Of a stretch of 64,000 nucleotides of DNA, positions 4,595 through 24,901 are shown piece by piece. Within the stretch, counting starts at the first letter, position 1; every line of letters starts with the position of its first letter. Source of the DNA: Candidatus Methylomirabilia bacterium (GTDB taxonomy: Bacteria; Methylomirabilota; Methylomirabilia; Rokubacteriales; CSP1-6); contig JBGPTW010000004.1 of assembly GCA_041490825.1 (NCBI GenBank), forward strand, positions 31,902 to 95,901. Direction: 5' to 3'. Below the pieces are notes generated by a model, which saw nothing but the letters and a program-made list of their open reading frames with translations, did no database searches and was not told the origin of the DNA. Position numbers and translations under genes: made by a program.

Positions 4595-5452
4595 GTGATG
4601 AAGGACCTGGCGGGCTCGTGCGTCAACGTTCCCGGCGTGTGGCCCATGTGCGAAGCGCCGTACATGCTGGAGCAAGGGCTCGCCTCACCCTCCCGCCTCG
4701 ACCTGATCGCCAGACGCTTCATCCGCATGGGTCCCTGCAAGACGCTGGACACGATCGGGGTCCCGTTGTTCACGAGCATCGGCCGGAACACCATCGACGG
4801 GTTTGCCTTCGACCTCCGCGTCCCCGAGCTGTGCCATAAGCTGATCCGAGACGGCCGCCTCGGCAGGTCCGCCAACCAGGGCGTCTATCTGTATCGTGAC
4901 GACCGGCCGGTCGACGACGCGCCGGAATACTATCTGACGCAGACGCCGCCTCCCTCTGGCGTGCGCTCGGACGACGCGAGCGTGTCCGAGCGGCTGATGT
5001 TTTCGATCTACTTCGCGATCCTGAAGATCGCGAGCATGGGGCTGTCCAGTGTCGGCGACCTCTGCCTAGGGATCACCGATCTGCTCGGCCTGAAGACGGA
5101 CCCGCTGGAAGAGCTGAGAAAGCTGGGAAGCGCCGGCCTGCGGGACGAGTTCGACCGTCTGCGGGCCGAGCCGGGGCCCCGCTATGGACTGCCGCCCGCT
5201 GGCGTCGATCATGGCCAGCCTGGACGACCGGTGACGTACCGCTTCGTGATCGCGGCCGTCCTCAACTGGATGGTGGTGGGCGCGCTGTTCGCCGTCGGGA
5301 TCCGCTATCTGGCTTCGAAGCGGGTCATGATCTACCACCTCCAGATCCTGGACGTGGCCTGGACCGACCTGACGCCGCGAACCCGGATCCTGATGCTGAC
5401 CTTGATGAAGGGAACGGCCCAGATCGCCCCACCCATGAGCGGAGACCGGTGA
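4595..5452 (+). CDS. Hypothetical protein. The N-terminal ~90 aa resemble the C-terminal domain of 3-hydroxyacyl-CoA dehydrogenase (no NAD-binding domain), followed by an uncharacterised hydrophobic C-terminal part.
   Basis: MGPCKTLDTIGVP...LIRDGRLGRSANQGVYLYRD resembles the 3HCDH C-domain (MGPFxLxDxVGLD...GxKxGxGFYxY). Its stop overlaps the next start (GTGA at 5449-5452). Confidence 0.4.
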   Translation: MMKDLAGSCVNVPGVWPMCEAPYMLEQGLASPSRLDLIARRFIRMGPCKTLDTIGVPLFTSIGRNTIDGFAFDLRVPELCHKLIRDGRLGRSANQGVYLYRDDRPVDDAPEYYLTQTPPPSGVRSDDASVSERLMFSIYFAILKIASMGLSSVGDLCLGITDLLGLKTDPLEELRKLGSAGLRDEFDRLRAEPGPRYGLPPAGVDHGQPGRPVTYRFVIAAVLNWMVVGALFAVGIRYLASKRVMIYHLQILDVAWTDLTPRTRILMLTLMKGTAQIAPPMSGDR

Positions 5453-6795
5453 GCCAGCTCTGCAGCGCCGTGGTTCGCCGGGGCTTTCGCTGGCTCAGCC
5501 GCGGTCTGCTCGCCCTGAGCCGGCTCCTGTACAAGCTGGAGATCGAAGGCGGGGAGAACCTCCCCGCGACGGGCCCGGTCATCCTCACCTGCCGGCACAA
5601 CTCGGGCTTGGACATCATCTTCTTCGCGGCGTTGGGCTTCATGACGGGTGAAGTGCCCCTTGCCGTGACGGGCGTCATCACCGTGAACCGCTTCCGGGCG
5701 TGGTTGGGCCGGAATCTTGGATTGGTTCCCTTGTTCCGGGAACAAGGCCTGTCGGCCGCTTCCCTCATGAGCCTGCACAAGAAATTGCGGCAGGGGGGTA
5801 TGGTCTTCATCGCCGACAACGAGATCCCCTGGGACGGCCGCCTCCGGACGCCCCGCTCCGGGGTCGCTTGGTGCGCCTTGCGCACTCATGCCCCGGTCGT
5901 CGTGGCGGTGCTCAATGGGGGCTACCGGATCGCTCCGCGCTGGGCCCAGCGGATTCCCCTGCGCGGAAAGCTGGCGCTGCGCATCGGGAAGCCGTTCCAT
6001 CTCTCCGACGCTCCGTGCGACCGAGTGACCAATGAGATGTTGCAGGCGGCCAACCGGCGTTTCGTCGACGAGATGCTGGCGCTTTCCGACCCCGCGCTGG
6101 TCAGCGAGGAGCACCCCAGATGCAAGGGCATCCCGAGCCTCCTGTGGCAATGCCCGATCTGTCACGAGGACGAGGCCCTCTACCACCGGACGCCCTGGTC
6201 CAAGCCCGCGGAGGTCCAGTGCCGCCACTGTGGGACCGGCTGGGTCGTGGAGCGGTTCCGGGACGATGATTATCACCTGAAGGTCGTGCAGGGAAACCCG
6301 ACGACGCTCGGCCAGGAGCGCTCGTTGGCCGCCTGGTACGACGTCATGAAGGCCGGGTTACGGCTGGTGCCGCAGGAAGACCCGGCGGTGGCTCTGGACG
6401 CCGGTGAAGAGCTCTACCTCCGCAGCCGGGAGGCGTGGCTGGAGGTAGAGGCGGACAATCCGCTTTTCCGCCACTGGGACGGCGAGGACGCTCCGCGGGA
6501 GCAGGCGAGCAACCTCGGCCCGAGCCTCATGACGCGCTGGGATCGCGGGCGGCTGTTCTTGACGAGCGAGCGGTTCATCTGGGTGGGCCGTCGCGGCCGG
6601 CTGAACTTTCCGCTCACCAAGCTGCACTCCACCCACCTCCAGACCATCCTGTTCTTCGGCTTCCTGTACGGAGTGCGCCGGTACCGCTTCAGCTTTCGAG
6701 GGGATAGCCTGCTGAGATGGCTGACGTACACCGCGCTGGTCGCGCAACGCGTCGAGCAGATCCACGGCCATCGCATCAGCACGACCAACTACTGA
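5449..6795 (+). CDS. Lysophospholipid / 1-acyl-glycerol-3-phosphate acyltransferase (PlsC/LPLAT family) with a ~250 aa C-terminal extension containing a CxxC...CxxC zinc ribbon.
   Basis: HxxxxD acyltransferase motif (CRHNSGLD), FIADNEIPWDGRL and PVVVAVLNGGYRIAP blocks. C-terminal extension has CPICHEDE...CRHCGTGW. Confidence 0.75.
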   Translation: MSQLCSAVVRRGFRWLSRGLLALSRLLYKLEIEGGENLPATGPVILTCRHNSGLDIIFFAALGFMTGEVPLAVTGVITVNRFRAWLGRNLGLVPLFREQGLSAASLMSLHKKLRQGGMVFIADNEIPWDGRLRTPRSGVAWCALRTHAPVVVAVLNGGYRIAPRWAQRIPLRGKLALRIGKPFHLSDAPCDRVTNEMLQAANRRFVDEMLALSDPALVSEEHPRCKGIPSLLWQCPICHEDEALYHRTPWSKPAEVQCRHCGTGWVVERFRDDDYHLKVVQGNPTTLGQERSLAAWYDVMKAGLRLVPQEDPAVALDAGEELYLRSREAWLEVEADNPLFRHWDGEDAPREQASNLGPSLMTRWDRGRLFLTSERFIWVGRRGRLNFPLTKLHSTHLQTILFFGFLYGVRRYRFSFRGDSLLRWLTYTALVAQRVEQIHGHRISTTNY

Positions 6796-6893: not shown

Positions 6894-8237
6894 TCAGTCT
6901 GGCGACGAACGGGTCCCCGCCAGGGCAGACGACATGGTCGACTCCGGAGGGATCTGATACCGCTCCGTGTACCAGGAGAATTTGTCGTCGATCATCTGGC
7001 GATCGAGCCCGAAGAGCTCCAAATTGTACCGGTGTTCGCCGTGCTTGTGCTGGGGATGCGCTTTCAGCCACGCCGTTGCCCGCGCTTCGAACTCGGGGGT
7101 GTAGGGGTAGCCGAAGTGCGCGTACAGGCGCTGCACCGCTCCGAGCGGATCCGCGACCAGCTCCTGGTAACGCATATCGTAGATACGGCCTGGCTCGGCG
7201 TGCGCTCGCGCCGCCTCGACGCGCCGCAGCGCCTCCGCGACCCAACTGATCACCACCGGCCCCACGGCGCCGCGCCGTGCCGGGTCTTCGGTCATCGAAT
7301 CATCCGTCATCAGATGATGGATGACACCCAGGAAGCTACACATTGATCCAATGGCACGGGACGGGTCGCGGTGAATCAGGACGATGGCCGCATCCGGGAA
7401 GACCGTCAGCAGCGCCTCGATCGCGTACGAGTGGATCGGCGCCTTCAACAACCAGTGCCCGTCGTGGGGCCGCCGCCAGTGGAGAAGTTGCAATTGCTCA
7501 CGGTACTCGCAGTAGGCTGCCTCGAAGACCTTGGCGGGCTGTCGCAGAAACCAATCGCGATATATCGGAGATACCTGCGCTGCAAGAACAAACGTGTTCA
7601 GCAGGAGCAAAACGCATTCTTCCGGCCCCTCCGGGTCAAGGTCGTGGATCTTGCGCAACCCGGGAGCCATGAACGTGAGCACTTTGGCGAAACGCTGGGC
7701 GTGTTTGATCCGCGGATCGCGGCCCCGGTCGATGTCCGCGGGACGCCGCGCTGGCATCATCGTTTCCCAGGCCAGGAGCGGACGGGCATGCGGATCCTGC
7801 GCCAGCAGCTTGTGCAGGAAGGTCGTTCCCGTGCGTGCCAAGCTGGCAATGAAGATCGGTCGTCGAATCGATACGCACAAAATCTCAGGGTGTCGCTTCA
7901 ACTCGTTCGTGATCAGGAGGCGGTTCACCAATGCGCTGAATATTTTGCGCCGTATCGTGAGACGGGCGAAGCACTTGAGCCCGCTCTCTTCGTTATGTGA
8001 TTGGATGAGCGTTCGCAGCGGGATCCGAAATCCGTCACCACCGAAATCCGAGAGACCGGTTTTCCGCTGGGCGGCACGCAGCAGGCTTTCTTCAGAAAGC
8101 CGGTCAATCGGAGCTCCGAGCGCCCGAAGCGCCCCTCCCGCGGCGTTCAGAAGCGTGACGATTCCAGAAACCAGCGCCGGCAACTGGGAACGCCCCGCTC
8201 GCTGTGGATGGCTCATGACGGTGGGTGGCGGGCACAA
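6894..8237 (-). CDS. Sulfotransferase (Sulfotransfer_3-like, PAPS-dependent).
   Basis: The 5'-PSB loop LARTGTTFLHKLLAQDP is present, and the C-terminal region is sulfotransferase-like. Confidence 0.75.
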   Translation of the reverse strand: MCPPPTVMSHPQRAGRSQLPALVSGIVTLLNAAGGALRALGAPIDRLSEESLLRAAQRKTGLSDFGGDGFRIPLRTLIQSHNEESGLKCFARLTIRRKIFSALVNRLLITNELKRHPEILCVSIRRPIFIASLARTGTTFLHKLLAQDPHARPLLAWETMMPARRPADIDRGRDPRIKHAQRFAKVLTFMAPGLRKIHDLDPEGPEECVLLLLNTFVLAAQVSPIYRDWFLRQPAKVFEAAYCEYREQLQLLHWRRPHDGHWLLKAPIHSYAIEALLTVFPDAAIVLIHRDPSRAIGSMCSFLGVIHHLMTDDSMTEDPARRGAVGPVVISWVAEALRRVEAARAHAEPGRIYDMRYQELVADPLGAVQRLYAHFGYPYTPEFEARATAWLKAHPQHKHGEHRYNLELFGLDRQMIDDKFSWYTERYQIPPESTMSSALAGTRSSPD

Positions 8238-9492: not shown

Positions 9493-9498
9493 GTGCCG

Positions 9499-11478: not shown

Positions 11479-11525
11479 GAAAAAGCAGATAGGGGAGTGA
11501 GCTTCGTCGCTCGCTTCGGCCCGCG

Positions 11526-12145: not shown

Positions 12146-12910
12146 GTGCTTGTCGCTGACGACCACACGTTTGCCGCCAGGCTTGCCGAATCGGCCGGCC
12201 GGCTGCTGCTCGAGCTACGGCATGAGCCGCCGGCCGGCATCGACGTCGGCGCGGCGGGCGACCGAGCGTCACATCAGTTTCTCGTCGAGGCCATTCATCG
12301 TCGCCATCCGGTCGATGCGATCCTGTCCGAAGAGGCGGCGGACGACGTCAGCCGACTGACCGCCGACCGCGTATGGATCATCGACCCGCTCGATGGCACC
12401 CGAGAGTTCTCGGAAGACGGCCGCGAAGATTGGGCGGTTCACGTGGCATTGTGGCAACGAGGCGCGCTGGCCGCAGGGGCGGTCGCCCTGCCGGCTCGAG
12501 CCATGGTGTCCTCGACTGCCTCTTCCCTCCGCCCAGTCGTCGCGACCATCGATGAGCCGCTGCGGTTCCTCGTCAGCCGCACGCGCCCGCCAGGCATCGC
12601 TGCCCACGTTGCCCGCGCCATGGGCGCGCGACTGATCCCGATGGGCTCGGCCGGCGCCAAGACCATCGCCGTCGTCCTGGGCGAAGCCGACGCCTACATC
12701 CACGCGGGCGGGCAGTACGAGTGGGACTCTGCTGCGCCCGTAGCGGTGGCCGCCGCGGCCGGCCTGCACGCATCTCGACTCGACGGTAGCGCCCTCCGCT
12801 ACAATCAGCGAGACCCCAGTCTCCCCGATCTCCTCGTGTGTCGACCCGACTTGGCCGATGCGCTCCTGCGTGCCATCGCGTTGGCGACGGAGACGCCCGG
12901 TATCCCATGA
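12146..12910 (+). CDS. cysQ: Inositol-monophosphatase-family 3'(2'),5'-bisphosphate nucleotidase (CysQ-like PAP phosphatase).
   Basis: WIIDPLDGT and EWDSAAP motifs of the IMPase/CysQ superfamily. The start may lie a few codons upstream. Confidence 0.7.
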   Translation: MLVADDHTFAARLAESAGRLLLELRHEPPAGIDVGAAGDRASHQFLVEAIHRRHPVDAILSEEAADDVSRLTADRVWIIDPLDGTREFSEDGREDWAVHVALWQRGALAAGAVALPARAMVSSTASSLRPVVATIDEPLRFLVSRTRPPGIAAHVARAMGARLIPMGSAGAKTIAVVLGEADAYIHAGGQYEWDSAAPVAVAAAAGLHASRLDGSALRYNQRDPSLPDLLVCRPDLADALLRAIALATETPGIP

Positions 12911-13077: not shown

Positions 13078-13332
13078 TCAGGCGTTGGCCTCTTTGTTCG
13101 CGATTGCCGTCTTCAGAAAGTCGACGGCATCCTGGACGGTCCTGATCTTCTGGGCTTCCTCTTCCGAGATATTCACGTCAAAGGTATTCTGGAGCGCCGT
13201 GATGATCTCCACGAGATCGATGGATGTGGCGTTGAGGTCGTCGATGAACATCGCTGTCGGGACGACGTCCTCGGGCTTCACGTCCAGGATCTCCAGCACG
13301 ATCTCTTTCACCTTCTCTTCCGCAGTCGCCAC
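13078..13332 (-). CDS. acpP: Acyl carrier protein.
   Basis: A GTG start at 13332 is preceded by the strong SD AAGGAGGA. DLNATSIDLVEIITAL is ACP helix II with the Ser attachment site. Confidence 0.7.
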   Translation of the reverse strand: MATAEEKVKEIVLEILDVKPEDVVPTAMFIDDLNATSIDLVEIITALQNTFDVNISEEEAQKIRTVQDAVDFLKTAIANKEANA

Positions 13333-13366
13333 GAAGTCCTCCTTGTTCGAGCAGCGTTGATGTCGT

Positions 13367-14593
13367 TCAGGGTTTGCTGAAGATGAGGCAGGCGTTGGTC
13401 CCGCCGAGTCCAGCATTGAAGGTCATCGCCGTTTCCAGTGGGACCTTCATGATCGATTGCACGTGGGGGACGCCCTCGCAGTCGGGCGCGATCCGCTCCA
13501 GATTGACCGTCGGCGCGACGAAGCCGTGGCGCAACATCAGCAGGGTGAAGATCGCCTCGTGGGCCCCGGTCGCGCCGAAGGAGTGCCCGGCCAGAGCCTT
13601 GGTGGAGCTGACGAGCGGAGAAGTGGTGCCGAACATCTCTCTGATGACCCGCACCTCGAGCGCGTCGTGAACCATGGTCCCGGTCCCGTGTGAATTGATG
13701 TAGTCGATGCGCTGCACCCCGTGCTCCTCGGCGGCCGCCATGGCTTGCCGCAGGGACTCCTTGAGCCCGTCACCGGAGGGGTGGAACATATCGAAGCCGT
13801 CGTTGCTGGAACCATAGCCGACGACCTCGGCATAGGGAGCGGCGCCCCGCTGTAGGGCGTGGTCCCGAGCTTCCAGCACGAGAATGCCCGCTCCCTCTGA
13901 GAGGACCGTCCCCTCCCGGTCTTGGTCGTAGGGGCGGCAGGCCCGTTCAGGATAGGCGTTCCACGACTTGGGCATTCCCCCCCAGTTGTCCAGGCAGCCC
14001 CAAACCTGACGCAAGGAGCTTTCTTCAGTCGCCCCGCAGAGAGACACATCCGCCATCCCGCGGCCGATGAGCTCATAGGCATGACCGATGGCGTCCGTGC
14101 CCGTACAGAACGAGGAGCATAGGCCGTAAGTTCTCCCCTGCACCCCGAGCCAGGCGGCAAGGTTGCCCGCTGCTGTCGAGTGCATGGCCTTGAGGAGCCC
14201 CGCCGCGCCGACACGGAGGGGGTTTTTGTGCTGTTGAAGCATGCGCTCGCCGTTGAAGATCTGGTTGATCCCGCCGAAGCTCGTCCCGACCACAACGGTA
14301 GCCCGGTCGGTCTTGAGCGCTTCCGGAGGAAGCTTGGCGTCGTCGATAGCCTCCGAGGCCGCGACGGCGGCAAATCTGGCCACGTTCGACATTGTCAGCA
14401 GCGTCCGCTTGCCGATCCAGGCCGTGTTCAATCCCTTGACGCGTCCACCCACGTGGCAGTGGAACCCCAGCTCTTTCATTTCAGGAATGAATTCGATTCC
14501 CGAGCGGCTCTCCCGGAGAGAGCTCAGCACCGCCTCCTTGTTGTTCCCGATGCAAGAGACGACGCCGAGCCCGGTAACGAGGACCCGCCTCAT
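13367..14593 (-). CDS. Beta-ketoacyl-ACP synthase I/II (FabF/FabB-like), copy 3.
   Basis: MRRVLVTGLGVVS start overlaps the upstream KAS stop (ATGA). Active-site Cys in SSFCTG, plus SHGTGT and GHSFGATG His motifs. Confidence 0.8.
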   Translation of the reverse strand: MRRVLVTGLGVVSCIGNNKEAVLSSLRESRSGIEFIPEMKELGFHCHVGGRVKGLNTAWIGKRTLLTMSNVARFAAVAASEAIDDAKLPPEALKTDRATVVVGTSFGGINQIFNGERMLQQHKNPLRVGAAGLLKAMHSTAAGNLAAWLGVQGRTYGLCSSFCTGTDAIGHAYELIGRGMADVSLCGATEESSLRQVWGCLDNWGGMPKSWNAYPERACRPYDQDREGTVLSEGAGILVLEARDHALQRGAAPYAEVVGYGSSNDGFDMFHPSGDGLKESLRQAMAAAEEHGVQRIDYINSHGTGTMVHDALEVRVIREMFGTTSPLVSSTKALAGHSFGATGAHEAIFTLLMLRHGFVAPTVNLERIAPDCEGVPHVQSIMKVPLETAMTFNAGLGGTNACLIFSKP

Positions 14594-15804
14594 GCGGCAT
14601 CCTTCCGCAGCACGAGGCACGTGTTGACGCCGCCGAAGCCGAACGCGTTGCTCGCGGCCACGTCGATCCTGGCCTCGATAGCTCGGTTTGCGACCAGGTT
14701 GATGCCTCCACACCGCGGATCGAGCTCGTCCAGGTTGATATTGGGGGCCACGAACTGGTTTCGCATCATGAGGAGGGTATAGATCACTTCGCTGCTGCCG
14801 CAGGTCGCCAGCTCGTGGCCCGTCATGGATTTGGTCGAGCTGACGTACGGCTGCTTCCCAAATACCTCGGCAATGGCCCGGGCCTCGGAAACGTCGCCGA
14901 CCGGCGTCGACGTCGCGTGAGCGTTGACGTAATCGATCTCGTCCGGTCTGACGCCCGCATCTTGAAGTGTCTGCCGCAGGCAGCGGACGCTTCCCTCCCC
15001 CGAAGGGATGGTCATGTCGTTTCCGTCGCTGGTGAAGGCGTAGCCGATCAGCTCGGCGTATATTTTGGCACCCCGGCGGCGCGCCTCCTCCAGCTCTTCG
15101 AGGATGAGGAGCCCGCTGCCCGCCGACGGGACGAGCCCGTCCCGGTGCTTGTCAAAGGGTCTGGACGCCTTCGTCGGGTCGTCTTCCCGAACGGAGAACG
15201 CCTTCAAGGCATCGAAATGGCAAAAGGCCTCCCACGTGTCCTCCTGGACCCCTCCCGCGATCGCCCGGTCCTGGAGTCCTCCCCGGATCAGCTGAAAGGC
15301 CTGTCCGATCGCTGCGGCGCCCGTCGCACAGGCGGCCGAGACGGTGAGGGTATAGCCGCGAGTCCCCAGAAGGACGGAGAGATTGGCGGAGGTCGTGTCT
15401 GCCATCACTCTTTGCAGCGCCGTTCCTCCAAGCTTGAGTCCCTCGTCCCGAAACATGTGGCACTGCCGGTACGTATCCTGAGCGTTCCCCGCGTTGCCGA
15501 TGATGACGGCCGTTCGGTCGCTCTGGATCCGCGCCGGCTCCCACGCAGCGTCCTCGATCGCCTGCCGGACCGCGTGCACGCCGAAGCATGTGCCGGGCCC
15601 CATCTGGCGCAGATTCCGCTTGGGAACGTCGGGAGGTTCCACGCCCGGGATCACCCCCGCGAGGCTGCTGCGGAAACCGAGGGCCTTCCTCTCCGGAATG
15701 AGCCCGATGCCCGAGCGGCCTGCCTGAAGGGCCGCGAGAACATCCCGCTGATTGTTTCCAAGACAGCTGATGATACCCATTCCGGTGATTACCACGCGGC
15801 GCAT
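14590..15804 (-). CDS. Beta-ketoacyl-ACP synthase II (FabF-like), copy 2.
   Basis: MRRVVITGMGIIS start. Motifs SAACATG, NAHATSTPVGD, GHELATCG. Confidence 0.8.
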   Translation of the reverse strand: MRRVVITGMGIISCLGNNQRDVLAALQAGRSGIGLIPERKALGFRSSLAGVIPGVEPPDVPKRNLRQMGPGTCFGVHAVRQAIEDAAWEPARIQSDRTAVIIGNAGNAQDTYRQCHMFRDEGLKLGGTALQRVMADTTSANLSVLLGTRGYTLTVSAACATGAAAIGQAFQLIRGGLQDRAIAGGVQEDTWEAFCHFDALKAFSVREDDPTKASRPFDKHRDGLVPSAGSGLLILEELEEARRRGAKIYAELIGYAFTSDGNDMTIPSGEGSVRCLRQTLQDAGVRPDEIDYVNAHATSTPVGDVSEARAIAEVFGKQPYVSSTKSMTGHELATCGSSEVIYTLLMMRNQFVAPNINLDELDPRCGGINLVANRAIEARIDVAASNAFGFGGVNTCLVLRKDAA

Positions 15805-15947
15805 CTATCACCTCAGTGTGCTGCGGGCGATCCGGCGTCACTAGGGTCAGGTCCTGCGCTCTCGACAGGCCGGGGATTATGCTGCAGCGTACTGCCCTTT
15901 GCACCTCGAAACGTCCTGTACCGACGGTCGGTGGCCATGGTTTGCCG

Positions 15948-16709
15948 TCACATGTACATACCGCCATCGACCCTGATCACCTGCCCGGTGATGTATGCGG
16001 ATCGATCGGACGCCAGGAACGCGACGGCCGCCGCGACCTCGCTGGGCTGCCCGACTCGCCCGAGCGGGATCATGGGCAGATACGACTCGTGGGAGATCGA
16101 AGCGGTGGCGTCCGTGACGATGAAGCCCGGCGAGACCACGGTCACCGTGATATTCCTCGAAGCGAGTCTCACGGCCAGAGACCTGGTGAACCCGATCAGG
16201 CCGAACTTGGTGGCCGAGTGGTCCACGAAGGTGTTACCGAGATCTCCGCCGACGCTCCCGATACTGATAATTCGTCCCCGGGGAAGCTCGCGCTCGATCA
16301 TGAACTTGACGACCGGTTTCGTGCAGTTGTACACGCCGGTCAGGTTTGTCGCGACGGCCTGATCCCAGTCCTCGTCGGCCACGCTCCCGGTCGGGTGAAG
16401 CGGCTCCGCGGAGTTCTGCGCGGGAAGTGCCCTCGCGACCGCCGCGTTGTTCACGAGAACGCTGACGGGCCCCGCCTCGGCCGTGAGCTCGTCGACCGCC
16501 TGGGCGACCTGGGCCCGCTGCGAGACGTCGAAGCGTTTGATCAGGCACGACCCGCCGCGCGCCTCGATGACGCCCCGGACCTCTTCGGCCGCCGCCTTGT
16601 TCTTCAGATAGTTGACGACCACGCGATAGCCATCGGCGGCCAGTCGAACAGCGATCGCCCTCCCGATCCCCCGGGAGGCGCCGGTGACCAGCGCGACAGG
16701 CGTGCTCAC
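15948..16709 (-). CDS. 3-oxoacyl-ACP reductase (FabG-like SDR), paralog 2, with His in place of the catalytic Tyr of YxxxK.
   Basis: [16 protein letters not shown] Rossmann motif. The GTG start at 16709 overlaps the dehydratase stop (GTGA). The active-site region reads DHSATK where NYAAAK is expected. Confidence 0.75.
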
Positions 16710-17194
16710 GGTGTCGTGCCCTGAGCCGGCAGGCCGGCCGTCGGACCGCCACGACGGCCCACGAGCCCCTTGAGCGTGAAGGTGGCCAGCAGCTCGTTGC
16801 GCTGGTTCTTGATTTCTCCCCTGACGACGATCAGCCCCCGCGTCTGATCGAGCTCCGTCAGTCTGATCACTTCGCCCTCCGTGTGAATCGTGTCCCCGAT
16901 CTTTGCAGGCGCCACGAATCGGACCTTTTCGACCCCGTAGAGGGCGATCGTCGACTTGGGCAGCAGCGTGAACTGTGCCCGTAGGAGGAGGGCGCTTCCG
17001 ACCGTCAGCACCAAGAGCCCGTGCGCGATCCGCTCGCCAAAGGGCGACTGTTTGGCGTACTCGGCGTCGGTATGGACCGCGAGCCAGTCGCCGGTGAAGG
17101 CCGCGAAGAGGACGATGTCCGTCTCGGTCAGGGTCCGACCCGGGCTCAGCGCCTTCTCGCCTACGCGGCAATCCTCGAAGAACTCTCTGTCCAT
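16706..17194 (-). CDS. MaoC-like (R)-specific enoyl-ACP/CoA hydratase or dehydratase (hot-dog fold), copy 2.
   Basis: [14 protein letters not shown]...RIAHGLLVL is a MaoC dehydratase signature. Its ATG lies 1 nt after the upstream KAS stop. Confidence 0.7.
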
Positions 17195-17195
17195 G

Positions 17196-18425
17196 TCAGA
17201 GCTTCCTGAAAATGAGGCAGGCGTTAGCGCCACCCAAGCCGGCGTTAAACGACATGACCGTCCTCAGCGGCTGGACCAGCGGCGAGCGAACATGACGTAC
17301 ACCTTCGCAGTCCGGGGCCACGTGTTCCAGGTTCGCGGTTGGAATCACGAAACCGTGCTGCAGCATCAACAGGGTGAAGATCGCCTCGTGGGCGCCGGCC
17401 GCCCCCTGGGAATGGCCATTCAGCGGCTTGGTTGAGCTGACGAGGGGGGATGGGTCGCCGAAGACTTCTCGGATGACCTGGATCTCCACGGCATCGCCGC
17501 TTTTGGTGCCGGCCCCGTGCGGGTTGATGTAGTCGATTTCGACCGGCCCGTGCGTTTCTGCGGCGACACTCAGCGCCTGCCTGATCGCCCGGGTCAATCC
17601 GCCCACCTTCGGCTCGTACATGGAATCGCCGTTGTTGGCTGACCCGTACCCGATCATCTCGGCCACAATGGGCGCCCCGCGCCGCTCGGCCCCCTCGAGC
17701 GATTCGAGGAGGAGAATCCCGGCGCCGTCGGAGGCGACCATTCCTTGTCGGTCACGGTCATACGGGCGGCATGCCCGTTCCGGATGGGCGTCCACATTGG
17801 GCGGCATGACGCCGGAGGCCCCGTGAGTCGCCCAGGCGTTTCCCACACCGGGCGCCTCGGTCCCTCCACAGATGCACAAGTCGACGACCCCGTGGCGGAC
17901 CAGCTCGAACCCATGCCCGATACTGTCGGTCCCGGTGGTGCACGCCGTGGACACCGAGTAGCAGCGTCCCTTCACGCCGAGCCACGCGGCGAGGTTCAGC
18001 GTGGCGGTCGAATTCATCATGCGCACAATCGGTGCCGTCCCGATGCGCACCGGGCTCTTGTGGGCAAGAAGCGTGCGCTCGGCGGCCGCGGCCTCGTTGG
18101 GATCGCCTCCACCAGATCCCACGACGACGCCGGCTCTCGTGCTCCGCAACATCTCGAGCGGCAAACGCGCGTCCTGCAGGGCCTCGAGAGCTGCGACTGC
18201 CGCATACCTGGCGGTCGCGGACATCGTCTGAAGTTGCTTCTTGCCGATCCCGTTGGTGACCAGCCCCGCGACCAGGCCGGCCACGGGATGCTTGTAGCCC
18301 AGCTCCTGCATCTCGGGCACGACCCGCACCCCCGAGATCCCTTCCTGCAAACATCGCCACACCTCGGCCTTGTTGTTGCCCAGGCACGAAACGATCCCCA
18401 TCCCCGTCACGGCGACGCGTCTCAC
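17196..18425 (-). CDS. Beta-ketoacyl-ACP synthase I/II, copy 1.
   Basis: MRRVAVTGMGIVS start. Motifs VSTACTTG, NPHGAGT, GHSQGAAG. Confidence 0.8.
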   Translation of the reverse strand: MRRVAVTGMGIVSCLGNNKAEVWRCLQEGISGVRVVPEMQELGYKHPVAGLVAGLVTNGIGKKQLQTMSATARYAAVAALEALQDARLPLEMLRSTRAGVVVGSGGGDPNEAAAAERTLLAHKSPVRIGTAPIVRMMNSTATLNLAAWLGVKGRCYSVSTACTTGTDSIGHGFELVRHGVVDLCICGGTEAPGVGNAWATHGASGVMPPNVDAHPERACRPYDRDRQGMVASDGAGILLLESLEGAERRGAPIVAEMIGYGSANNGDSMYEPKVGGLTRAIRQALSVAAETHGPVEIDYINPHGAGTKSGDAVEIQVIREVFGDPSPLVSSTKPLNGHSQGAAGAHEAIFTLLMLQHGFVIPTANLEHVAPDCEGVRHVRSPLVQPLRTVMSFNAGLGGANACLIFRKL

Positions 18426-18435
18426 CTCGAGTTCC

Positions 18436-19170
18436 TCACATTAAGAGCCCGCCGTTGACGCGAATCACCTGCCCGGTGATGTAGGCTGCGTCGTCTGAGG
18501 CGAGAAAAGAAACCACTTGGGCGACCTCCTCAGGCCGGCCGACCCGCCCCATCGGGATTCTCTTCTCCAGCTCCGCCACAGGGAGGCTTCGGATCGCCTC
18601 GGTATCGATGAACCCCGGAGAGACCGCGTTGACGGTCAGCCCCGTGGAAGCCAGCTCGCGAGCGGCCGCCTTGGTAAAGCCGACAACGCCGGCCTTCGCC
18701 GCGGCATAGTTCGTCTGTCCGAGATTTCCCGTCTCTCCGACGAGGCTCGTGATGTTGATGATCCGCCGTCCCGGCCGTCGCCGACCCGCCATCGACATTA
18801 CTACCGCCTTCGTGCAGTAATACACACCGTTCAAGTCCGTGTCGATGACCGCGCGCCAAGCGTCGTGAGGCATCCGCATGAGAAGGTGATCGCGAATCGT
18901 GGCGGCGTTGTTGACGAGGACCTGGACGGGGCCCTCCGTGCGTGCGATGTTTTTCACCGCCGCCTCGACTTCCTCGGACTTCGAGACGTCGAAGCCGAGC
19001 AACACGGCTTGGCCGTTCTCGCCGACGATCAGGTTGCGCGTCTCTTCCGCCTCCTCCACACGCGTATGGTAATGGACCACGACCGCGAAGCCATCGCGCG
19101 CGAGCTGGAGCGCCACGGCTCTCCCGATCCCACGCGAGGCGCCGGTGACGATAGCGACCGGCTTATCCAT
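18436..19170 (-). CDS. fabG: 3-oxoacyl-ACP reductase FabG (canonical N-S-Y-K).
   Basis: [20 protein letters not shown] and NYAAAKAG motifs. Confidence 0.85.
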   Translation of the reverse strand: MDKPVAIVTGASRGIGRAVALQLARDGFAVVVHYHTRVEEAEETRNLIVGENGQAVLLGFDVSKSEEVEAAVKNIARTEGPVQVLVNNAATIRDHLLMRMPHDAWRAVIDTDLNGVYYCTKAVVMSMAGRRRPGRRIINITSLVGETGNLGQTNYAAAKAGVVGFTKAAARELASTGLTVNAVSPGFIDTEAIRSLPVAELEKRIPMGRVGRPEEVAQVVSFLASDDAAYITGQVIRVNGGLLM

Positions 19171-19585
19171 GGCTCACCTCGCCGTCAGCGAGACGGCGCC
19201 CGGCGAGGATCTTGCTCGTGTACGTCAAGATCTCCTCGTCCCGCTGGTTTTTCATGGAATGCGTCATCGCGATGAGACCGCGGCTCCGATCGACCTGGGT
19301 CGTCTGGGCCACCTCCGCTTCCACGTGGACCGTATCGCCGACCTTCGCACGAGACGCGAATCGCACCCGCTCGAGGCCCCAGAGGGCGATGGTGGATCGA
19401 GGGATCCCCCGATCGCCCGCAAGGAACATCAGGCCGCCGCTGATGACCAGGGGGCAGAGGTCGTGGGCGAGCGAGTGCCCGGCCAGCGCCTCGAACACCA
19501 CGAGGTCGGTTTCCGTGATCGTTCGTGCCGGGGTGAGCACACGGTCGCCGACGTGGAAATCCTCGAAGTAAGCCTGTTCGCTCAT
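19163..19585 (-). CDS. MaoC-like dehydratase (hot-dog fold), copy 1.
   Basis: 140 aa. YFEDFHVGDRV...TETDLV is MaoC-like. It overlaps the fabG start by 8 bp. Confidence 0.7.
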   Translation of the reverse strand: MSEQAYFEDFHVGDRVLTPARTITETDLVVFEALAGHSLAHDLCPLVISGGLMFLAGDRGIPRSTIALWGLERVRFASRAKVGDTVHVEAEVAQTTQVDRSRGLIAMTHSMKNQRDEEILTYTSKILAGRRLADGEVSHG

Positions 19586-19601
19586 TCGCGGGTGTTCGCG
19601 C

Positions 19602-20633
19602 TCATTCCGGAACTAGTACCAACTTCCCGAACGCCTCGCGCTGCTCCAGCAGCTGATGGGCGCGTCGGGCCTCCTTCAACGGCAGGACCCGGTCCAACAC
19701 AGGCTTCAGCTTCCCGTCGTTGACCATCTGGCTGATCGGAAACATCCAGGCCTTGCTTCCCGTCGTCGCGCCCAGGATCTTGAGATTCCGGAAGAAGACG
19801 TGGCGCAGGTCCGTCTTCGGAAGATACCCGGACGTGGCCCCGCACGTGACGAGCCGCCCGCCCACCGTCAGGCAGAGCAGGCTCCGCTCCCACACGTCCT
19901 CGCCGATGTGCTCGACCACCACGTCCACGCCCCGCTTCTTCGTGATCCGGCGCACCTCGTGCAGGAAATCGTGGGTTTTGTAGTTGATCCCGTAGTGCGC
20001 CCCCAAGGCCTTGGCCTTCTCGACTTTCTCGTCGCTCCCCGCCGTCGTGATGATGTTCGCGCCCACCATCCGGGCCAGCTGGATCGCTGCGCTGCCGACG
20101 CCGCTTCCCCCCGCGTGGATCAACACCCACTCCCCCGGCTCGAGCTTGGCCTTCGCGAAGATCATGTTCCAGGCGGTCCCAAAGGCCGCCGGAAGACAGG
20201 CGGCGATCTCGAAGGGCGTCTCGTCGCGAAGGGCAACCATGTTCTGAGCGGGCACCCTCACGAACTGCGCGTAGCCTCCGGGCAGGTGCTCCCCGATCAG
20301 CTGATAGCCGGGGCAGAGGTTGTCCCACCCCGACAGGCAGCGCTCGCACCGACCGCAGCTCACTCCGGGAGCGACGACCACCCGAGTCCCGGGGGCTAGC
20401 GCCTTGGTATTGGGACCGATGGCGGCTACCTCGCCGGCGATATCCACCCCGGGGATGAACGGGAAGTGAACCTTGAGGAACGGAAGGCCCTTGCGCATCC
20501 ACAGGTCCACTTGGTTGACCCCGCACGCCCGGACTCGGACAAGGACTTCGCCCTCGGCCGGCGCGGGATCCGGCAGGTCGCCGTAGGTCAGGACGTCGAT
20601 TCCGCCATGCTCGTTCAGGTAGACGGCCTTCAT
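19602..20633 (-). CDS. Zn-dependent medium-chain dehydrogenase/reductase (quinone oxidoreductase / enoyl reductase-like), tandem paralog A.
   Basis: 343 aa MDR fold: structural-zinc motif GCGRCERC and GGSGVGSAAIQLA NAD(P)-binding loop. Confidence 0.8.
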   Translation of the reverse strand: MKAVYLNEHGGIDVLTYGDLPDPAPAEGEVLVRVRACGVNQVDLWMRKGLPFLKVHFPFIPGVDIAGEVAAIGPNTKALAPGTRVVVAPGVSCGRCERCLSGWDNLCPGYQLIGEHLPGGYAQFVRVPAQNMVALRDETPFEIAACLPAAFGTAWNMIFAKAKLEPGEWVLIHAGGSGVGSAAIQLARMVGANIITTAGSDEKVEKAKALGAHYGINYKTHDFLHEVRRITKKRGVDVVVEHIGEDVWERSLLCLTVGGRLVTCGATSGYLPKTDLRHVFFRNLKILGATTGSKAWMFPISQMVNDGKLKPVLDRVLPLKEARRAHQLLEQREAFGKLVLVPE

Positions 20634-21664
20634 GCACTCCCCTCAGGGACCAGAACGAGCTTCCCGAACTGCTGACGTCCTTCCAGGAGTCGGTGGGCCT
20701 CCCGAGCTTCCCGCAGCGGCAACACCCGATCTAATACCGGGTGCAGCTTTCCCTCCTGCACGAGGCGAACAATCCGAAACAGGATTGACCGGCTCCCGGT
20801 CGTCACGCCCATGACCTGGAGATTCCGGAAGAACACGTGGCGAAGGTTGATCTTCGGCAGATAACCGGAACTGGCCCCGCACGTGACGAGGCGTCCGCCC
20901 GTGGCCAGACAGAGCAGACTGCGCTCCCACACGTCCTCGCCGATGTGCTCGATGACCACGTCCACGCCGCGCTTCTTCGTGATGCGGCGGACCTCGTGGA
21001 GGAAATCGTGAGTCTTGTAGTTGATGCCGTGGTGGGCTCCGAGAGCCTTGGCTTTTTCCACTTTCTCGTCGGTGCCGGCGGTAGTGATGACGTTGGCGCC
21101 GACCATTCGCGCGAGCTGGATGGCGGCGCTCCCGACACCGCTTCCCCCCGCGTGGACCAGGACCCACTCGCCCGACTCGAGTTTCGCTTTCTCGAAGACC
21201 ATGTTCCATGTCGTAATGAACACCGCCGGGAGGCAGGCTGCGGTGACGAAGGGAAGATCGGGCGGAAGCGGGACGACGTTCTGAACCGGGACTTTCACGT
21301 ACTGAGCGTAGCCGCCCGGAATGTTCTTGCCGATCAACCGATAGCTGGCACAGAGGTTATCCCGGCCAGAGAGGCAGTGTCGGCACCGACTGCAGCCGAG
21401 GCCGGGGTTGATGACCACCCGCGTGCCGGCCGCCGGCGCGTCCGCCGAGCCGGCAGCGACCACATCACCGGCGATGTCCTGACCGAGCGTGAACGGAAAG
21501 GGAACCCGCAGCATCGGCAACCCCTCGCGGACCCACCGATCAGCGTGGTTCAGACCGCACGCGGCAACCCGAACCACGACCTCGCCTGGTCCGGGCGTGG
21601 GATCCGGTAACTCACCATAGGTGAGCTTGTCGATACCACCGTGCTCTGTGAAGTAGACCGCCTT
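20630..21664 (-). CDS. Zn-dependent MDR oxidoreductase, tandem paralog B.
   Basis: Starts MKAVYFTEHGG. Its C-terminal half is about 90% identical at nucleotide level to paralog A. The 4-bp overlap with paralog A suggests co-transcription. Confidence 0.8.
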   Translation of the reverse strand, partial: KAVYFTEHGGIDKLTYGELPDPTPGPGEVVVRVAACGLNHADRWVREGLPMLRVPFPFTLGQDIAGDVVAAGSADAPAAGTRVVINPGLGCSRCRHCLSGRDNLCASYRLIGKNIPGGYAQYVKVPVQNVVPLPPDLPFVTAACLPAVFITTWNMVFEKAKLESGEWVLVHAGGSGVGSAAIQLARMVGANVITTAGTDEKVEKAKALGAHHGINYKTHDFLHEVRRITKKRGVDVVIEHIGEDVWERSLLCLATGGRLVTCGASSGYLPKINLRHVFFRNLQVMGVTTGSRSILFRIVRLVQEGKLHPVLDRVLPLREAREAHRLLEGRQQFGKLVLVPEGSA

Positions 21665-21803
21665 CATGCGGCGGTGGACAGGCGCGCCAAGCGTCGCACC
21701 CGATGATTGTACTCGCCCTGCACGATCTTTGCTGAGGATCCGCTCCCCGCGACCGACGCTCTTCGTCGCAATACCGGGACCCAAACAACCCTTGATGGAA
21801 CTG

Positions 21804-22220
21804 CTACACGCCCGGCGTCCCGGCGGGCTTGCCGAAGACGCGCCGGCCGCCGATTACGAGGGCGGCCAGGAAAACCGCGATGAGCAGTGCGCCGACGATC
21901 GTCTTTCCGCCGAGCAGCGCCTCGCCCGGATCGCGGGTCGCGATCGCCTCGGCGAAGAACACGGTCGCGGCGATTCCGGGGATGACGCCGAGCGCGGTGC
22001 CCGCGACGTAGTGGTGGACGCGCACCCCGGTGGCACCGATCGCCCAGTTGAGCGGCGGAGCAAGAAAGAGGACGAAGCGGAGGATGAGCATAGTCAGAAA
22101 GCCGTGGCGATCGAGCCGTTCGTCGAGTGCGCGCAGGCCAGCGAACCGGGTGGTCAGCGCGCGCTGGAACGCGTCGCGCAAGACCCAGCGTGCGAGGAGG
22201 AACGTCGACGTGGTGCCCAC
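21804..22220 (-). CDS. DedA/TVP38-family membrane protein, probably a C-terminal fragment or N-terminally frameshifted.
   Basis: 138 aa with the family's conserved region (GTALGVIPGIAATVFFAEAIA). Too short for a full DedA (~200+ aa), and an IS fragment lies upstream. Confidence 0.4.
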   Translation of the reverse strand: MGTTSTFLLARWVLRDAFQRALTTRFAGLRALDERLDRHGFLTMLILRFVLFLAPPLNWAIGATGVRVHHYVAGTALGVIPGIAATVFFAEAIATRDPGEALLGGKTIVGALLIAVFLAALVIGGRRVFGKPAGTPGV

Positions 22221-22491
22221 GACCGAAGCGATCCAGCCGTAGGCGAAGGCGTGCGGCCAGTCGAAGAGCAGGCCACCGAGGGCGATGAGTACGATCCCGG
22301 GAAGATGGAGGAAGATGCCCGCGATGCAGACACTGATGAAGACGAGCGGGCCGTAGGGAGCTTGCGCGTCGACCAGCGCGCGAATTCCCTCGAGCGTCAG
22401 GTGGCTCTCTGAGTCGAAGCGCTGGTGGGCCCAGACGCCGGCGGCGACCAGCGGAGCCTGTCAATAGGAATGAGACAGTCGGTTATCGAGT

Positions 22492-22947
22492 TTAGTGAGC
22501 GAGCGCCATCTCCTCGAGCGCGCGGGGCTTGGGGGGATTGATCCAGACCTCGGTGGGCACCGCGGCCGGCATCGGACGGCCCGCCGGGAACCGCTCCGGA
22601 TGCGCCGCGTACGCCGTGGTGAGCACTGCGGCGCGCTCGGCCACGCGCTGCGCGGCCAAGCCGACATGCACGTCGTGGGGCGTGAGCAGCCCGAGGCCGC
22701 TGTGGTGATGTGCGGTGTTGTACTTATGCGGGTGATCCGAGATCACCACGCATAAGCCACTGATCATGCGGGTGATAGGATCACCCGCATATCGGGACCA
22801 GGGGAAGAAGACCTGCCCGTGGGCCCGAGCGTCTTGGATCGAGCCGAACCGTTCCGGGAACGCCGGCCGGTACTTCAGCGTCTTGAACTGCGTCTCCGAG
22901 AACGGGTTGTCGTTGGACACGTGGGGCCGCGAATGCGTCTTGATCAC
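22492..22947 (-). mobile_element. DDE integrase core-domain C-terminal fragment (IS3/IS481-like transposase remnant) interrupted by a ~75-bp palindromic insertion.
   Basis: RPHVSNDNPFSETQFKTLKYRPAFPERF...HHSGLGLLTPHDVHVG...HPERF is an rve-domain C-terminus. No N-terminal part is present. Confidence 0.65.
22730..22795. repeat. Two tandem hairpins sharing the stem ATGCGGGTGATC (MITE/REP-like palindromic insertion).
   Basis: ttatgcgggtgatc-cga-gatcaccacgcataa, followed by atgcgggtgat-agg-atcacccgcat. Adds about 25 codons (RYAGDPITRMISGLCVVISDHPHKYNTA) to the integrase frame. Confidence 0.45.
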
Positions 22948-23030
22948 GCCGAGATCGGCCAGTAGGAGCCGATGCCGCTGATCAGAACGGAGCCCTTCTC
23001 GCTGCCGCTCATGGGACCTCCTTGGCGACT

Positions 23031-24809: not shown

Positions 24810-24901
24810 CGCTTTTCCGGTTTTGGACACACCTGCGTCGCGCCGCGCGACCTGAATCGACCTCAGATGGCTGATCGTTCTCGATTCGAGGTAACACATA
24901 A

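Follow-up and report, generated by a model that had tools for sequence, protein, structure and literature searches.

The stretch of DNA analysed here (64,000 nucleotides of contig JBGPTW010000004.1 from a Candidatus Methylomirabilia bacterium of the Rokubacteriales; hereafter the window) carries an operon of type II fatty acid synthesis (FAS-II)-like genes in which the ketosynthase, dehydratase, ketoreductase and putative enoyl-reductase genes all occur more than once. This raises the question of whether the operon serves ordinary fatty acid synthesis, consists of two working copies of one module, or forms a synthase of its own kind. A first-pass annotation of the sequence had described it as a duplicated, private FAS-II elongation module. 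The results support a private, acyl carrier protein (ACP)-dependent, FAS-II-like elongation system, in that its 3-oxoacyl-ACP synthases (KAS) score below the FabB and FabF cutoffs and form clades of their own. The operon probably encodes a dedicated ACP-dependent iterative type II synthase with its own full cycle of condensation, reduction, dehydration and reduction, distinct from the ordinary fatty acid synthase. The duplication, however, is not what it had seemed, as described below.

Organization of the operon

Pfam searches identified ten co-directional minus-strand genes at 13078–21670 in the order MDR-MDR-DH-KR-KAS-DH-KR-KAS-KAS-ACP (MDR, medium-chain dehydrogenase/reductase; DH, dehydratase; KR, ketoreductase; CLF, chain length factor):

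MDR1, 20630..21670, minus strand: medium-chain dehydrogenase/reductase, putative enoyl-ACP reductase; Pfam ADH_N and ADH_zinc_N
MDR2, 19602..20633, minus strand: paralogue of MDR1 (73% identity), putative enoyl-ACP reductase; Pfam ADH_N and ADH_zinc_N
DH1, 19163..19585, minus strand: hot-dog protein derived from a MaoC dehydratase, without the catalytic Asp/His segment; probable partner of DH2
KR1, 18436..19170, minus strand: FabG-type 3-oxoacyl-ACP reductase, Ser-Tyr-Lys triad intact
KAS1, 17196..18425, minus strand: active-type ketosynthase (Cys-His-His-Lys) from a clade of its own; would be the catalytic partner of KAS3
DH2, 16706..17194, minus strand: MaoC-type (R)-specific 3-hydroxyacyl dehydratase, GDxxxxH intact
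KR2, 15948..16709, minus strand: FabG-derived paralogue with a 10-residue insertion, catalytic Tyr lost; probable pseudoenzyme
KAS2, 14590..15804, minus strand: FabB/ApeR-like ketosynthase with full Cys-His-His-Lys and canonical GFGG
KAS3, 13367..14593, minus strand: full-length CLF-like KAS paralogue, 408 aa, nucleophile Cys replaced by Phe
ACP, 13078..13332, minus strand: dedicated acyl carrier protein, 84 aa; PP-binding

The ten open reading frames (ORFs) agree with the gene list, order and coordinates given by the first-pass annotation, as does the strong Shine–Dalgarno sequence reported before the ACP gene (AAGGAGG, 6 nt upstream of the GTG start at 13332). The overlapping stop and start codons also described were found at four of the nine junctions (MDR1/MDR2, 4 nt; DH1/KR1; DH2/KR2; KAS2/KAS3) and not at the other five, where the gaps are 1–34 nt, or 143 nt between KR2 and KAS2. 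A terminator-like hairpin lies beyond the ACP gene at 13019–13004. The ACP passes the TIGR00517 model (77.7 bits; cutoff 70.45) and is 49% identical to Escherichia coli AcpP. The G+C content at third codon positions (GC3) is high across the operon ORFs (0.75–0.88), and the window as a whole is GC-rich chromosomal DNA (about 65% GC) that also holds uvrB, uvrC, ribonucleotide reductase and ppx. A Logan assembly of an independent public sequencing run (L001; related loci are referred to by such numbers) is 100% identical to the window over 8466 nt, so the odd features of the operon are not artefacts of a single assembly. No FabD, FabA/Z or FabI/K/V domain was seen in the ORFs scanned across the window, in agreement with the earlier statement, and no FabH domain either, apart from a FabH-like KAS III in a separate block at 6894–10950.

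KAS3, a predicted CLF-like partner of KAS1

A MAFFT alignment with E. coli FabB and FabF and with orthologues showed that the position of FabB Cys163 is occupied by Phe in KAS3 (SSFCTG, versus TACTTG in KAS1), and an independent HMMER alignment to the FabB structure gave the same result. The Cys of KAS3 sits one residue downstream of the nucleophile position. Full-length homologues recovered with KAS1 as the query (113 in all) were sorted by similarity into 78 KAS1-type and 35 KAS3-type proteins. The nucleophile Cys was present in 78/78 KAS1-type proteins, whereas the KAS3-type proteins carried Phe (19/35), Ser (13/35) or Cys (3/35) at this position; Gln, the residue that marks a classical KSβ, was found in none of the 35. 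The neighbouring Cys occurred in only 20 of the KAS3-type proteins, while both catalytic His residues and the Lys were kept in every one of them, and the window KAS3 retains the equivalents of His298, His333 and Lys328. KAS3 aligns to FabB end to end in HMMER and is not half-size. KAS1-type and KAS3-type proteins alike have Leu in place of the gating Phe in their C-terminal GFGG motif.

Because Phe or Ser replaces the nucleophile and the neighbouring Cys is not conserved, KAS3 is predicted to be a full-length CLF-like partner paralogue of KAS1. The two earlier statements that all three KAS retain the active Cys and that none is a CLF are therefore wrong for KAS3. The trap lies in the nearby, non-homologous Cys of the KAS3-type proteins; in the source databases, they and the other family members recovered carry no label beyond that of ordinary 3-oxoacyl-ACP synthases. 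KAS1 and KAS3 together show the hallmark of a ketosynthase (KS)/CLF pair, namely two KS paralogues of which one lacks the nucleophilic Cys. An affinity to the KSα/KSβ proteins of aromatic or highly reducing type II polyketide synthases (PKSs) was not seen, KAS1 scoring 165 bits against 1TQY (actinorhodin KS) and 189 bits against 6KXD (Iga11), versus 278 bits against FabB.

Placement of the three KAS proteins

All three KAS matched the FabB model best in NCBIfam, and none reached the cutoff of the FabB (630) or FabF (493.75) model; the FabB/FabF scores were 348.6/311.8 for KAS1, 419.6/385.4 for KAS2 and 376.7/324.9 for KAS3. Against structures, each of the three matched FabB first (278–343 bits) and FabF next, with the ApeR structures (7F27 and 4EWG), 6KXD (173–198 bits) and the actinorhodin KS lower. 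KAS2 gave 343 bits with FabB, 283 with the best FabF and 278–283 with the two ApeR structures, and it is 39% identical to KAS1 or KAS3, 44% to E. coli FabB and 38% to FabF.

In a neighbour-joining (NJ) tree with 100 bootstraps, support was 100 for canonical FabF, 100 for canonical FabB, 100 for KAS1/3, 72 for KAS2 and 0 for KAS2 plus FabB; the KAS1/3 clade was weakly sister to FabB (52%). Phylogenetic placement, a check that the first-pass annotation had proposed, thus gave no firm clustering with canonical FabF, and the separate clades together with the scores below both cutoffs uphold its view that the set is distinct from canonical FabF and FabB. KAS2 grouped at 100% bootstrap with the KAS of a Paludibacter locus (L014) that has a flexirubin/aryl-polyene-type arrangement. 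KAS2 is predicted to belong to a FabB/ApeR-like clade separate from KAS1/3, and the comparison suggests a common origin of KAS2, together with its KR, and an ApeQ/ApeR-type pair. At L014 (6814–11227), an acyltransferase and an aromatic amino-acid ammonia-lyase precede a short-chain dehydrogenase/reductase (SDR) and a KAS2-like KS. Adjacent SDR and KAS2-like KS genes, the latter 42–46% identical to KAS2, were also seen in Bacteroidetes/Desulfobacterota loci (L013–L019, L023, L024).

Dehydratase and ketoreductase pairs

DH1 is a sub-threshold MaoC match (19.6 bits; cutoff 27). It shows an in-frame loss of about 18 residues, which takes in the catalytic Asp/His segment (..FGERIAHG). About 16 distinct DH1-related sequences (64–76% identity to DH1) all lack this segment, and the remnants differ in length and sequence; the segment is intact in 158-aa sister forms, and two intact DHs each are present in L090 and L091. 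DH2 matches PF01575 with 84.3 bits and has the motif GDWLAVH. Its match to PDB 1Q6W (104.6 bits) exceeded those to PaaZ, PhaJ, HTD2 (3IR3) and HadB-type chains. The two MaoC dehydratases described earlier thus come down to DH2, DH1 falling below the threshold without its catalytic segment. DH2 and DH1 show the HadAB-type combination of a catalytic MaoC protein and a paralogue without Asp/His, and may pair in the same way.

KR1 matches adh_short_C2 (198.8 bits), passes the NCBIfam FabG model NF004200 (277.5 bits; cutoff 273) and contains NYAAAK; on the FlxB model it reaches 275 bits, under the cutoff of 340. KR2 carries a one-codon deletion, reading DH-SATK where most members of its FabG subfamily, which has the 10-residue insertion, read DHYSATK; its sequence is identical in L001. 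The loss of Tyr is common to eight relatives (P0172-176, 181, 187 and 193; 86–95% identity), and in two of these Tyr-less relatives the Lys is also gone. The earlier assignment of two FabG ketoreductases therefore stands for KR1 and fails for KR2, whose catalytic Tyr is deleted.

From these results, neither DH1 nor KR2 is expected to be catalytically competent in this lineage. KAS3, DH1 and KR2 are better read as three disabled paralogues beside one predicted catalytic set (KAS1, KAS2, KR1, DH2, MDR1/2 and ACP). Identities within the paralogue pairs are 73% for the MDRs, 57% for KAS1/KAS3, 50% for the KRs and 46% for the DHs. This unequal divergence, together with the disabled state of KAS3, DH1 and KR2, argues against a recent DH-KR-KAS copy giving two working modules. 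The description of the operon as a duplicated module, in the sense of two working DH-KR-KAS sets, has to be given up, as the paralogue of KAS1 is also KAS3 and not KAS2.

MDR reductases

The best NCBIfam match of MDR1 was the PIG3/quinone-oxidoreductase subfamily (254 bits, under the cutoff of 296.8), followed by acryloyl-CoA reductase (143 bits; cutoff 500), CCR (132; 378) and AcuI (56; 440), so that by the MDR1 scores no curated enoyl-CoA/ACP reductase model was passed. MDR1 matched PDB 2EIH with 332 bits and 5K1S, a zinc-family oxidoreductase that we take to be the Myxococcus enoyl-CoA reductase AibC, with 192 bits. Both MDRs are about 50% identical to 2EIH, a Thermus structure. The structural-zinc Cys4 loop is kept in MDR1 and MDR2, and the catalytic-zinc motif GHE is changed to GQD in MDR1, GVD in MDR2 and GTD in the Planctomycete copies. 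The equivalent of the third catalytic-zinc ligand in MDR2 is not Cys in a hand alignment, and the first-ligand Cys is absent in the MDRs of L010/L011 and in 2EIH. The lack of catalytic-zinc ligands fits proteins of the C=C reductase type, as opposed to the zinc-dependent alcohol dehydrogenases (Zn-ADH). In the MDR superfamily, reduction of C=C bonds is the typical activity of members that have no catalytic zinc (QOR, LTB4DH, Etr1/MECR and the enoyl-reductase domains of PKSs).

One MDR is present in the minimal core KAS-KAS-KAS-ACP-MDR-DH-KR of L010/L011, implying that the MDR belongs to the cycle, and it is the sole candidate enoyl reductase (ER) of the conserved unit. An enoyl-reductase role is a reasonable and plausible reading of the MDR sequences, and the earlier pairing of the module with MDR-type enoyl reductases is plausible on the same grounds, the lost zinc ligands and the place of the MDR in the minimal core.

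The cofactor-binding halves of MDR1 and MDR2 are near-identical in protein over about 110 residues, with DNA identity of 78–90% versus 57–73% in the flanks. Recent gene conversion was considered and rejected, since the central DNA is only 78–90% identical and is equally conserved in orthologues, which points to constraint.

Distribution and synteny of the core

The synteny sample comprised about 13 loci, the relatives being metagenome-assembled genomes (MAGs) and metagenome contigs. In the genome-collection scan with a KAS1 alignment, the matches listed were mostly canonical FabF (about 35% identity), the informative ones among them being L007–L012; in the metagenome scan with a KAS3 alignment, 77 of the 80 loci listed were canonical FabB (58–75% identity to E. 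coli FabB) and the relevant ones were L092–L094. A tblastn search of plasmids found no relative above about 41% identity, the matches being FabB-like at about 40%. The source databases label the relatives as Rokubacteria, Methylomirabilales, Entotheonellia, one 'Alphaproteobacteria' MAG, Phycisphaeraceae, Planctomycetia and Desulfobacteraceae.

The trio of KAS1-, KAS2- and KAS3-type proteins was found in Rokubacteria (L002, L007, L008, L093), Entotheonellia-like loci (L004, L005, L089–L091) and Phycisphaeraceae (L010, L011), and a Planctomycetia locus (L012) has KAS1-type and KAS3-type copies with ACP, DH and KR. The gene order of the window is repeated exactly in Rokubacteria L002/L003 and L093, with a CysQ-like gene after the ACP gene. 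In Entotheonellia-like loci the order is MDR-MDR-DH-KR-KAS1-KAS2-KR-KAS3-ACP, and the minimal form in Phycisphaeraceae consists of KAS1-type, KAS2 and KAS3-type genes, ACP, one MDR, one DH and one KR. Taken together, the conserved unit appears to be a KS, a FabB-like KS, a CLF-like protein, ACP, MDR, MaoC-type DH and KR, which would make up a complete reducing cycle. No FabD, FabH, FabZ/A or FabI was found among the genes called at these related loci. Extra copies are present at L008 (four KAS, including an additional Cys-bearing copy of the KAS1/3 clade) and at L091 (three MDRs, two intact DHs and two KRs), and the core seems prone to paralogue expansion. Nothing on this cluster was found in the literature on Rokubacteria fatty acids or sulfotransferases, on MaoC with KAS and sulfotransferases, or on 2EIH.

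Comparison with known systems

The aryl-polyene (APE) type II PKS comprises a KS/CLF heterodimer (ApeO-ApeC), a FabB-like homodimeric KS that raises throughput (ApeR), a heteromeric dehydratase (ApeH-ApeP) and a FabG-type KR (ApeQ) (PMC8358021). By analogy, this system appears to be the best functional parallel of the operon, which likewise has an active KS, a partner without the Cys, a third KS that is FabB-like, hot-dog dehydratases in a pair, a KR of the FabG type and a discrete ACP. The neighbours of both include an acyltransferase of the lysophospholipid acyltransferase (LPLAT) type and a glycosyltransferase, and KAS2 groups with an APE/flexirubin-type KS; the first-pass annotation had noted a resemblance to aryl-polyene sets, and the resemblance proved closer than it had supposed. 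The differences are also clear. The operon has the APE architecture of a KS/CLF pair plus an ApeR-like KS, yet KAS2 scores higher on FabB than on the ApeR structures. Its core contains MDRs, whereas the APE pathway skips enoyl reduction; ApeC is half-size with one thiolase half, in contrast to the full-length KAS3 with its retained His-His-Lys; and KAS1/3 form their own clade. The APE combination of no ER, an aryl-starter enzyme and two tandem ACPs was not found either, since the operon has two MDRs and a single ACP, with no tyrosine ammonia-lyase (TAL) or aryl-acid ligase in the scanned window ORFs. The dehydratases are of the MaoC type here, the APE pair ApeI-ApeP being FabZ-like.

The mycobacterial FAS-II (KasA/KasB, MabA, HadAB/HadBC, InhA, AcpM) is similar in being elongation-only, with two KAS for different chain lengths. 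Its dehydratases HadAB and HadBC combine the catalytic MaoC subunit HadB with the non-catalytic HadA or HadC and so provide a precedent for a catalytic MaoC protein with a dead partner, as proposed for DH2/DH1. It differs in that its ER is the SDR InhA and not an MDR and that it has no CLF-like KAS. Scores on the mycobacterial NCBIfam models were low (HadB, 35.3 bits for DH2, cutoff 203; KasA/B, 167–235, cutoff 560; AcpM, 48.5, cutoff 146), and DH2 is not a HadB equivalog. Mitochondrial FAS-II (HTD2, MECR/Etr1, KAR) also combines a MaoC/hydratase-2 dehydratase with an MDR-superfamily ER, and DH2 matches HTD2 3IR3; the analogy is at superfamily level, no close sequence relationship being seen. 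Mitochondrial KAR is a heterotetramer of two different SDRs. The highly reducing type II PKSs of actinomycetes, such as that for ishigamide (Iga11-Iga12, 6KXD), resemble the operon in an iterative KS/CLF with discrete KR, DH and ACP; they make polyenes and are not known to have an ER, and KAS1–3 are much closer to FabB than to 6KXD, as given above.

The rhizobial acpXL-lpxXL cluster for very-long-chain fatty acids has a private ACP, a hot-dog DH, two KAS, a required dehydrogenase of the Zn-ADH family and the acyltransferase LpxXL (PMC11901934). The likeness lies in the private ACP, the hot-dog dehydratase, the dedicated KAS, the Zn-ADH-family dehydrogenase and the supply of an envelope lipid (PMC11901934). 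The operon differs in having no LpxXL-type acyltransferase, its own KR(s) and a third KAS, and NCBIfam scores gave no sign of orthology. Because the curated NCBIfam sequence models tested were not reached, the operon is not considered a member of any of the families compared.

Proposed mechanism

KAS1 would act as the elongating ketosynthase, paired with KAS3. As its nucleophile is Phe or Ser, a KAS3-type protein should be unable to form an acyl-enzyme; with His-His-Lys kept, its part may be to give the acyl pocket its shape and, possibly, to decarboxylate malonyl-ACP. KAS2 would be a FabB/ApeR-like homodimeric ketosynthase for another chain-length range. KR1 would reduce the 3-keto group and DH2 would dehydrate the product, after which the MDRs without catalytic zinc ligands would reduce enoyl-ACP, and such enoyl reduction would leave the chain saturated or largely saturated. 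DH1 and KR2 may be kept as structural partners, DH1/DH2 in the manner of HadA/HadB and KR1/KR2 as a mixed FabG tetramer. Malonyl loading and phosphopantetheinylation would be borrowed from primary metabolism. The acyl-ACP would be passed to PlsC-like acyltransferases for an envelope (glyco)lipid, which would probably be sulfated in this Rokubacteria lineage.

Several points weigh against such a dedicated, fully reducing synthase. The heteromers are drawn from paralogy, co-occurrence and analogy. The record of 2EIH carries no assigned function, and the MDRs may instead reduce keto groups or act on alcohols. The dead paralogues could simply be decaying, as the two KR2 relatives that have lost the Lys as well would suggest. 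Every carrier recovered is an uncultured MAG or a metagenome contig. The accessory genes vary by lineage (sulfotransferases here; glycosyltransferases and phosphodiesterase-family genes elsewhere), implying that the end product may differ. The block of sulfotransferase, FabH-like, second ACP and condensation-like genes beside the operon is of lower GC, bounded by insertion sequence (IS) remnants and not syntenic with the core elsewhere. Finally, no other fab genes were seen in the 64-kb window.

This last point also speaks for the possibility that the operon is the housekeeping FAS-II, from which Rokubacteria would draw their bulk membrane fatty acids, as do the passing scores of KR1 on the FabG equivalog and of the ACP on the AcpP model. 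A housekeeping set would nevertheless hardly lack FabD, FabH, FabZ/A and FabI in or near the operon at about 13 loci, and its KAS would not be expected far under the FabF/FabB cutoffs and outside both clades. The phyla in which it occurs are moreover unrelated (Rokubacteria, Entotheonellia and Planctomycetes, with a partial locus in Desulfobacteraceae), its occurrence among them is patchy and its composition varies; glycolipid/polysaccharide operons enclose the core, and IS remnants flank the window copy. There is only a slim chance that this explanation holds. Synthesis of a very-long-chain (omega-1)-hydroxy fatty acid for lipid A by a system of the AcpXL type fares little better and is very improbable. 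The parts of such a system are alike in kind (own ACP, hot-dog dehydratase, two KAS, Zn-ADH-family dehydrogenase; PMC11901934), and L010 adjoins an O-antigen-ligase-family gene and a flippase gene. Against this, an acyltransferase of the LpxXL/MsbB type was found at none of the loci, where the acyltransferases are PlsC-type (PF01553); the described cluster lists no KR and only two KAS (PMC11901934); and among all NCBIfam KAS and ACP models the proteins score best on those of the FabB/FabF and AcpP type.

A highly reducing type II PKS without an enoyl-reduction step, making a pigment of the aryl-polyene/flexirubin kind and using its MDRs for another purpose such as tailoring or alcohol formation, would account for the APE layout of a KS/CLF pair, FabB-like KS, paired dehydratases and FabG-type KR (PMC8358021), for the grouping of KAS2 with a flexirubin-type KS and the 275 bits of KR1 on the FlxB model, and for the fatty acyl-AMP ligase (FAAL), halogenase, FAD monooxygenases and extra ACP near the core in L002/L003. 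Such a synthase looks distinctly unlikely, as an MDR lies within the conserved core in every lineage, the minimal Planctomycete form included; aryl-starter enzymes (TAL, 4-hydroxybenzoate ligase) and LolA-like or MMPL genes were not found in the window; the dehydratases are MaoC-type; KR1 stays under the FlxB cutoff; and the full-length CLF-like protein with His-His-Lys contrasts with the half-size ApeC. The remaining alternative, which we regard as unlikely but deserving of the most attention, is a tandem duplication in decay, KAS3, DH1 and KR2 being leftovers without a structural role in a system that works like the single-copy Planctomycete core. A single DH, KR and MDR indeed suffice at Planctomycete loci, the DH1-loop remnants vary, and the Lys has also been lost in two KR2 relatives; the DH and KR losses are lineage-specific, since both DHs are intact in L090/L091 and the Tyr is retained by most KR2-type proteins. 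Decay would leave unexplained, however, why a non-Cys KAS3-type protein is present in every lineage and why all 35 of these proteins keep His, His and Lys, which argues for selection. DH1-type proteins remain 64–76% identical outside the deleted loop in about 16 sequences, the Tyr-less KR2 relatives are 86–95% identical, and the ORFs keep a high GC3 (0.71–0.82) with no frameshifts or stops.

The dedicated iterative synthase thus being preferred, a bolder proposal may be put forward tentatively. The loci could represent an undescribed, widespread class of fully reducing type II synthase, in which a FabB-derived KS works with a full-length CLF-like protein (Phe/Ser at the nucleophile, His-His-Lys kept), a third, FabB/ApeR-like KS, a MaoC-type DH and an MDR-type ER, the KR and DH steps also being enzyme/pseudoenzyme pairs in some lineages. 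It would make the long-chain acyl part of an envelope (sulfo/glyco)lipid in uncultured Rokubacteria/Methylomirabilota, Entotheonellia and Planctomycetes. If this is true, the class would be a third solution between FAS-II and type II PKS, controlled by a KS/CLF pair yet fully reducing, and the setting of chain length in saturated type II systems would become directly testable. It would also offer a natural example of a cycle in which three successive steps have pseudoenzyme partners, and would point to a class of envelope lipids in uncultured bacteria that abound in soil and sediment and whose membrane chemistry has hardly been charted.

Neighbouring genes and envelope-lipid context

The following features flank the operon in the window:

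CysQ-like inositol-monophosphatase-family protein, 12146..12910, plus strand: Pfam Inositol_P; CysQ model 95 bits, under the cutoff of 228.8
DedA/VTT membrane protein, 21804..22460, minus strand: PF09335, 68.9 bits; directly upstream of MDR1
PlsC-like acyltransferase fused to a Zn-ribbon/GRAM-like 'X' domain (AT-X), 5450..6795 (start approximate), plus strand: PF01553, HX4D
Sulfotransferase (Sulfotransfer_3), 6894..8237, minus strand: PF13469, 132 bits

AT-X is 46–56% identical to the separate AT and X genes located immediately after the ACP gene in L091, L004, L005 and L089, and it is likely the acceptor-side enzyme for acyl-ACP. In five loci, the ACP gene is followed by a PlsC-like acyltransferase, the 'X' protein and a second acyltransferase, and then by a family 2 glycosyltransferase (GT2), DedA and two phosphodiesterase-family genes. 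A VTT/DedA gene accompanies the core in almost every locus (L002, L004, L005, L089, L090, L091), and the core operon of L010 includes an O-antigen-ligase-family protein, a MurJ-type flippase, GT4 and GT2 proteins and two alpha/beta hydrolases. The common denominator of these loci is probably an envelope (glyco)lipid that takes its acyl chain from a dedicated ACP.

The Rokubacteria island contains sulfotransferases, the CysQ-like phosphatase, a PEMT/ICMT-like methyltransferase and a UbiA protein (1454–2374, plus strand) that passes the NCBIfam decaprenyl-phosphate phosphoribosyltransferase cutoff. The core is bordered by sulfotransferase genes in L002/L003, L007 and L012 as well, and the CysQ-like gene adjoins the ACP gene in L001, L002/L003, L092 and L093. 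The CysQ-like protein is possibly a 3'-phosphoadenosine 5'-phosphate (PAP) phosphatase supporting the sulfotransferases, and lipid sulfation in the Rokubacteria lineage is plausible, the indications being circumstantial. L001, L002, L092 and L093 also share with the window a 178-aa protein (11526–12062, minus strand) encoded close to the ACP end of the operon.

The minus-strand block at 6894–10950 (GC about 60%) encodes the sulfotransferase, the FabH-like KAS III, a second ACP and a PapA/condensation-like protein, and may be a separately acquired acyl-ester or sulfolipid module. Its candidacy as a loading module was set aside and the block left out of the mechanism because of its lower GC, its IS-remnant boundary and its lack of synteny with the core elsewhere. 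Three transposase/integrase fragments (DDE_Tnp_ISAZ013, ISL3 and rve_3) interrupt the lipid island at 965–1483, 10993–11781 and 22492–23064, the one at 10993–11781 being ISL3. Gene order is rearranged relative to Rokubacteria L002, the PEMT gene lying 19 kb away here and adjacent to MDR1 there. The AT-X fusion lies in a 631-codon stop-to-stop ORF (4900–6795), and the ORF at 4490–5452 (plus strand) holds only a 3-hydroxyacyl-CoA dehydrogenase C-terminal domain and so may be a fragment.

Neither Pfam nor NCBIfam gave a match for a large polytopic membrane protein (23031–25496, minus strand; about 600 aa of the ORF), which is 42% identical to the product of a gene beside the L007 sulfotransferases; with WDD in its apparent first loop, it is suspected to be a GT-C-like glycosyltransferase. 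Two MacAB/TolC-type tripartite exporter sets, comprising HlyD-family, MacB_PCD/FtsX and outer-membrane efflux proteins, were found at 25664–32622 (minus strand) and 45703–50890 (plus strand), with an ABC ATPase gene identified in the first only. The first set lies just upstream of the lipid island, together with an extracytoplasmic function (ECF) sigma factor gene and an S26 signal-peptidase-like gene, and presumably resembles the cyanobacterial DevBCA-type glycolipid exporter. Possible tailoring genes at 55289–61245 encode an AurF-like N-oxygenase, an SRPBCC/polyketide-cyclase-like protein, an EamA transporter, an SDR and a luciferase-like monooxygenase. An HNH endonuclease ORF (37044–37583, minus strand) is the next gene downstream of uvrB, with an overlap of about 70 nt between their stop-to-stop frames.

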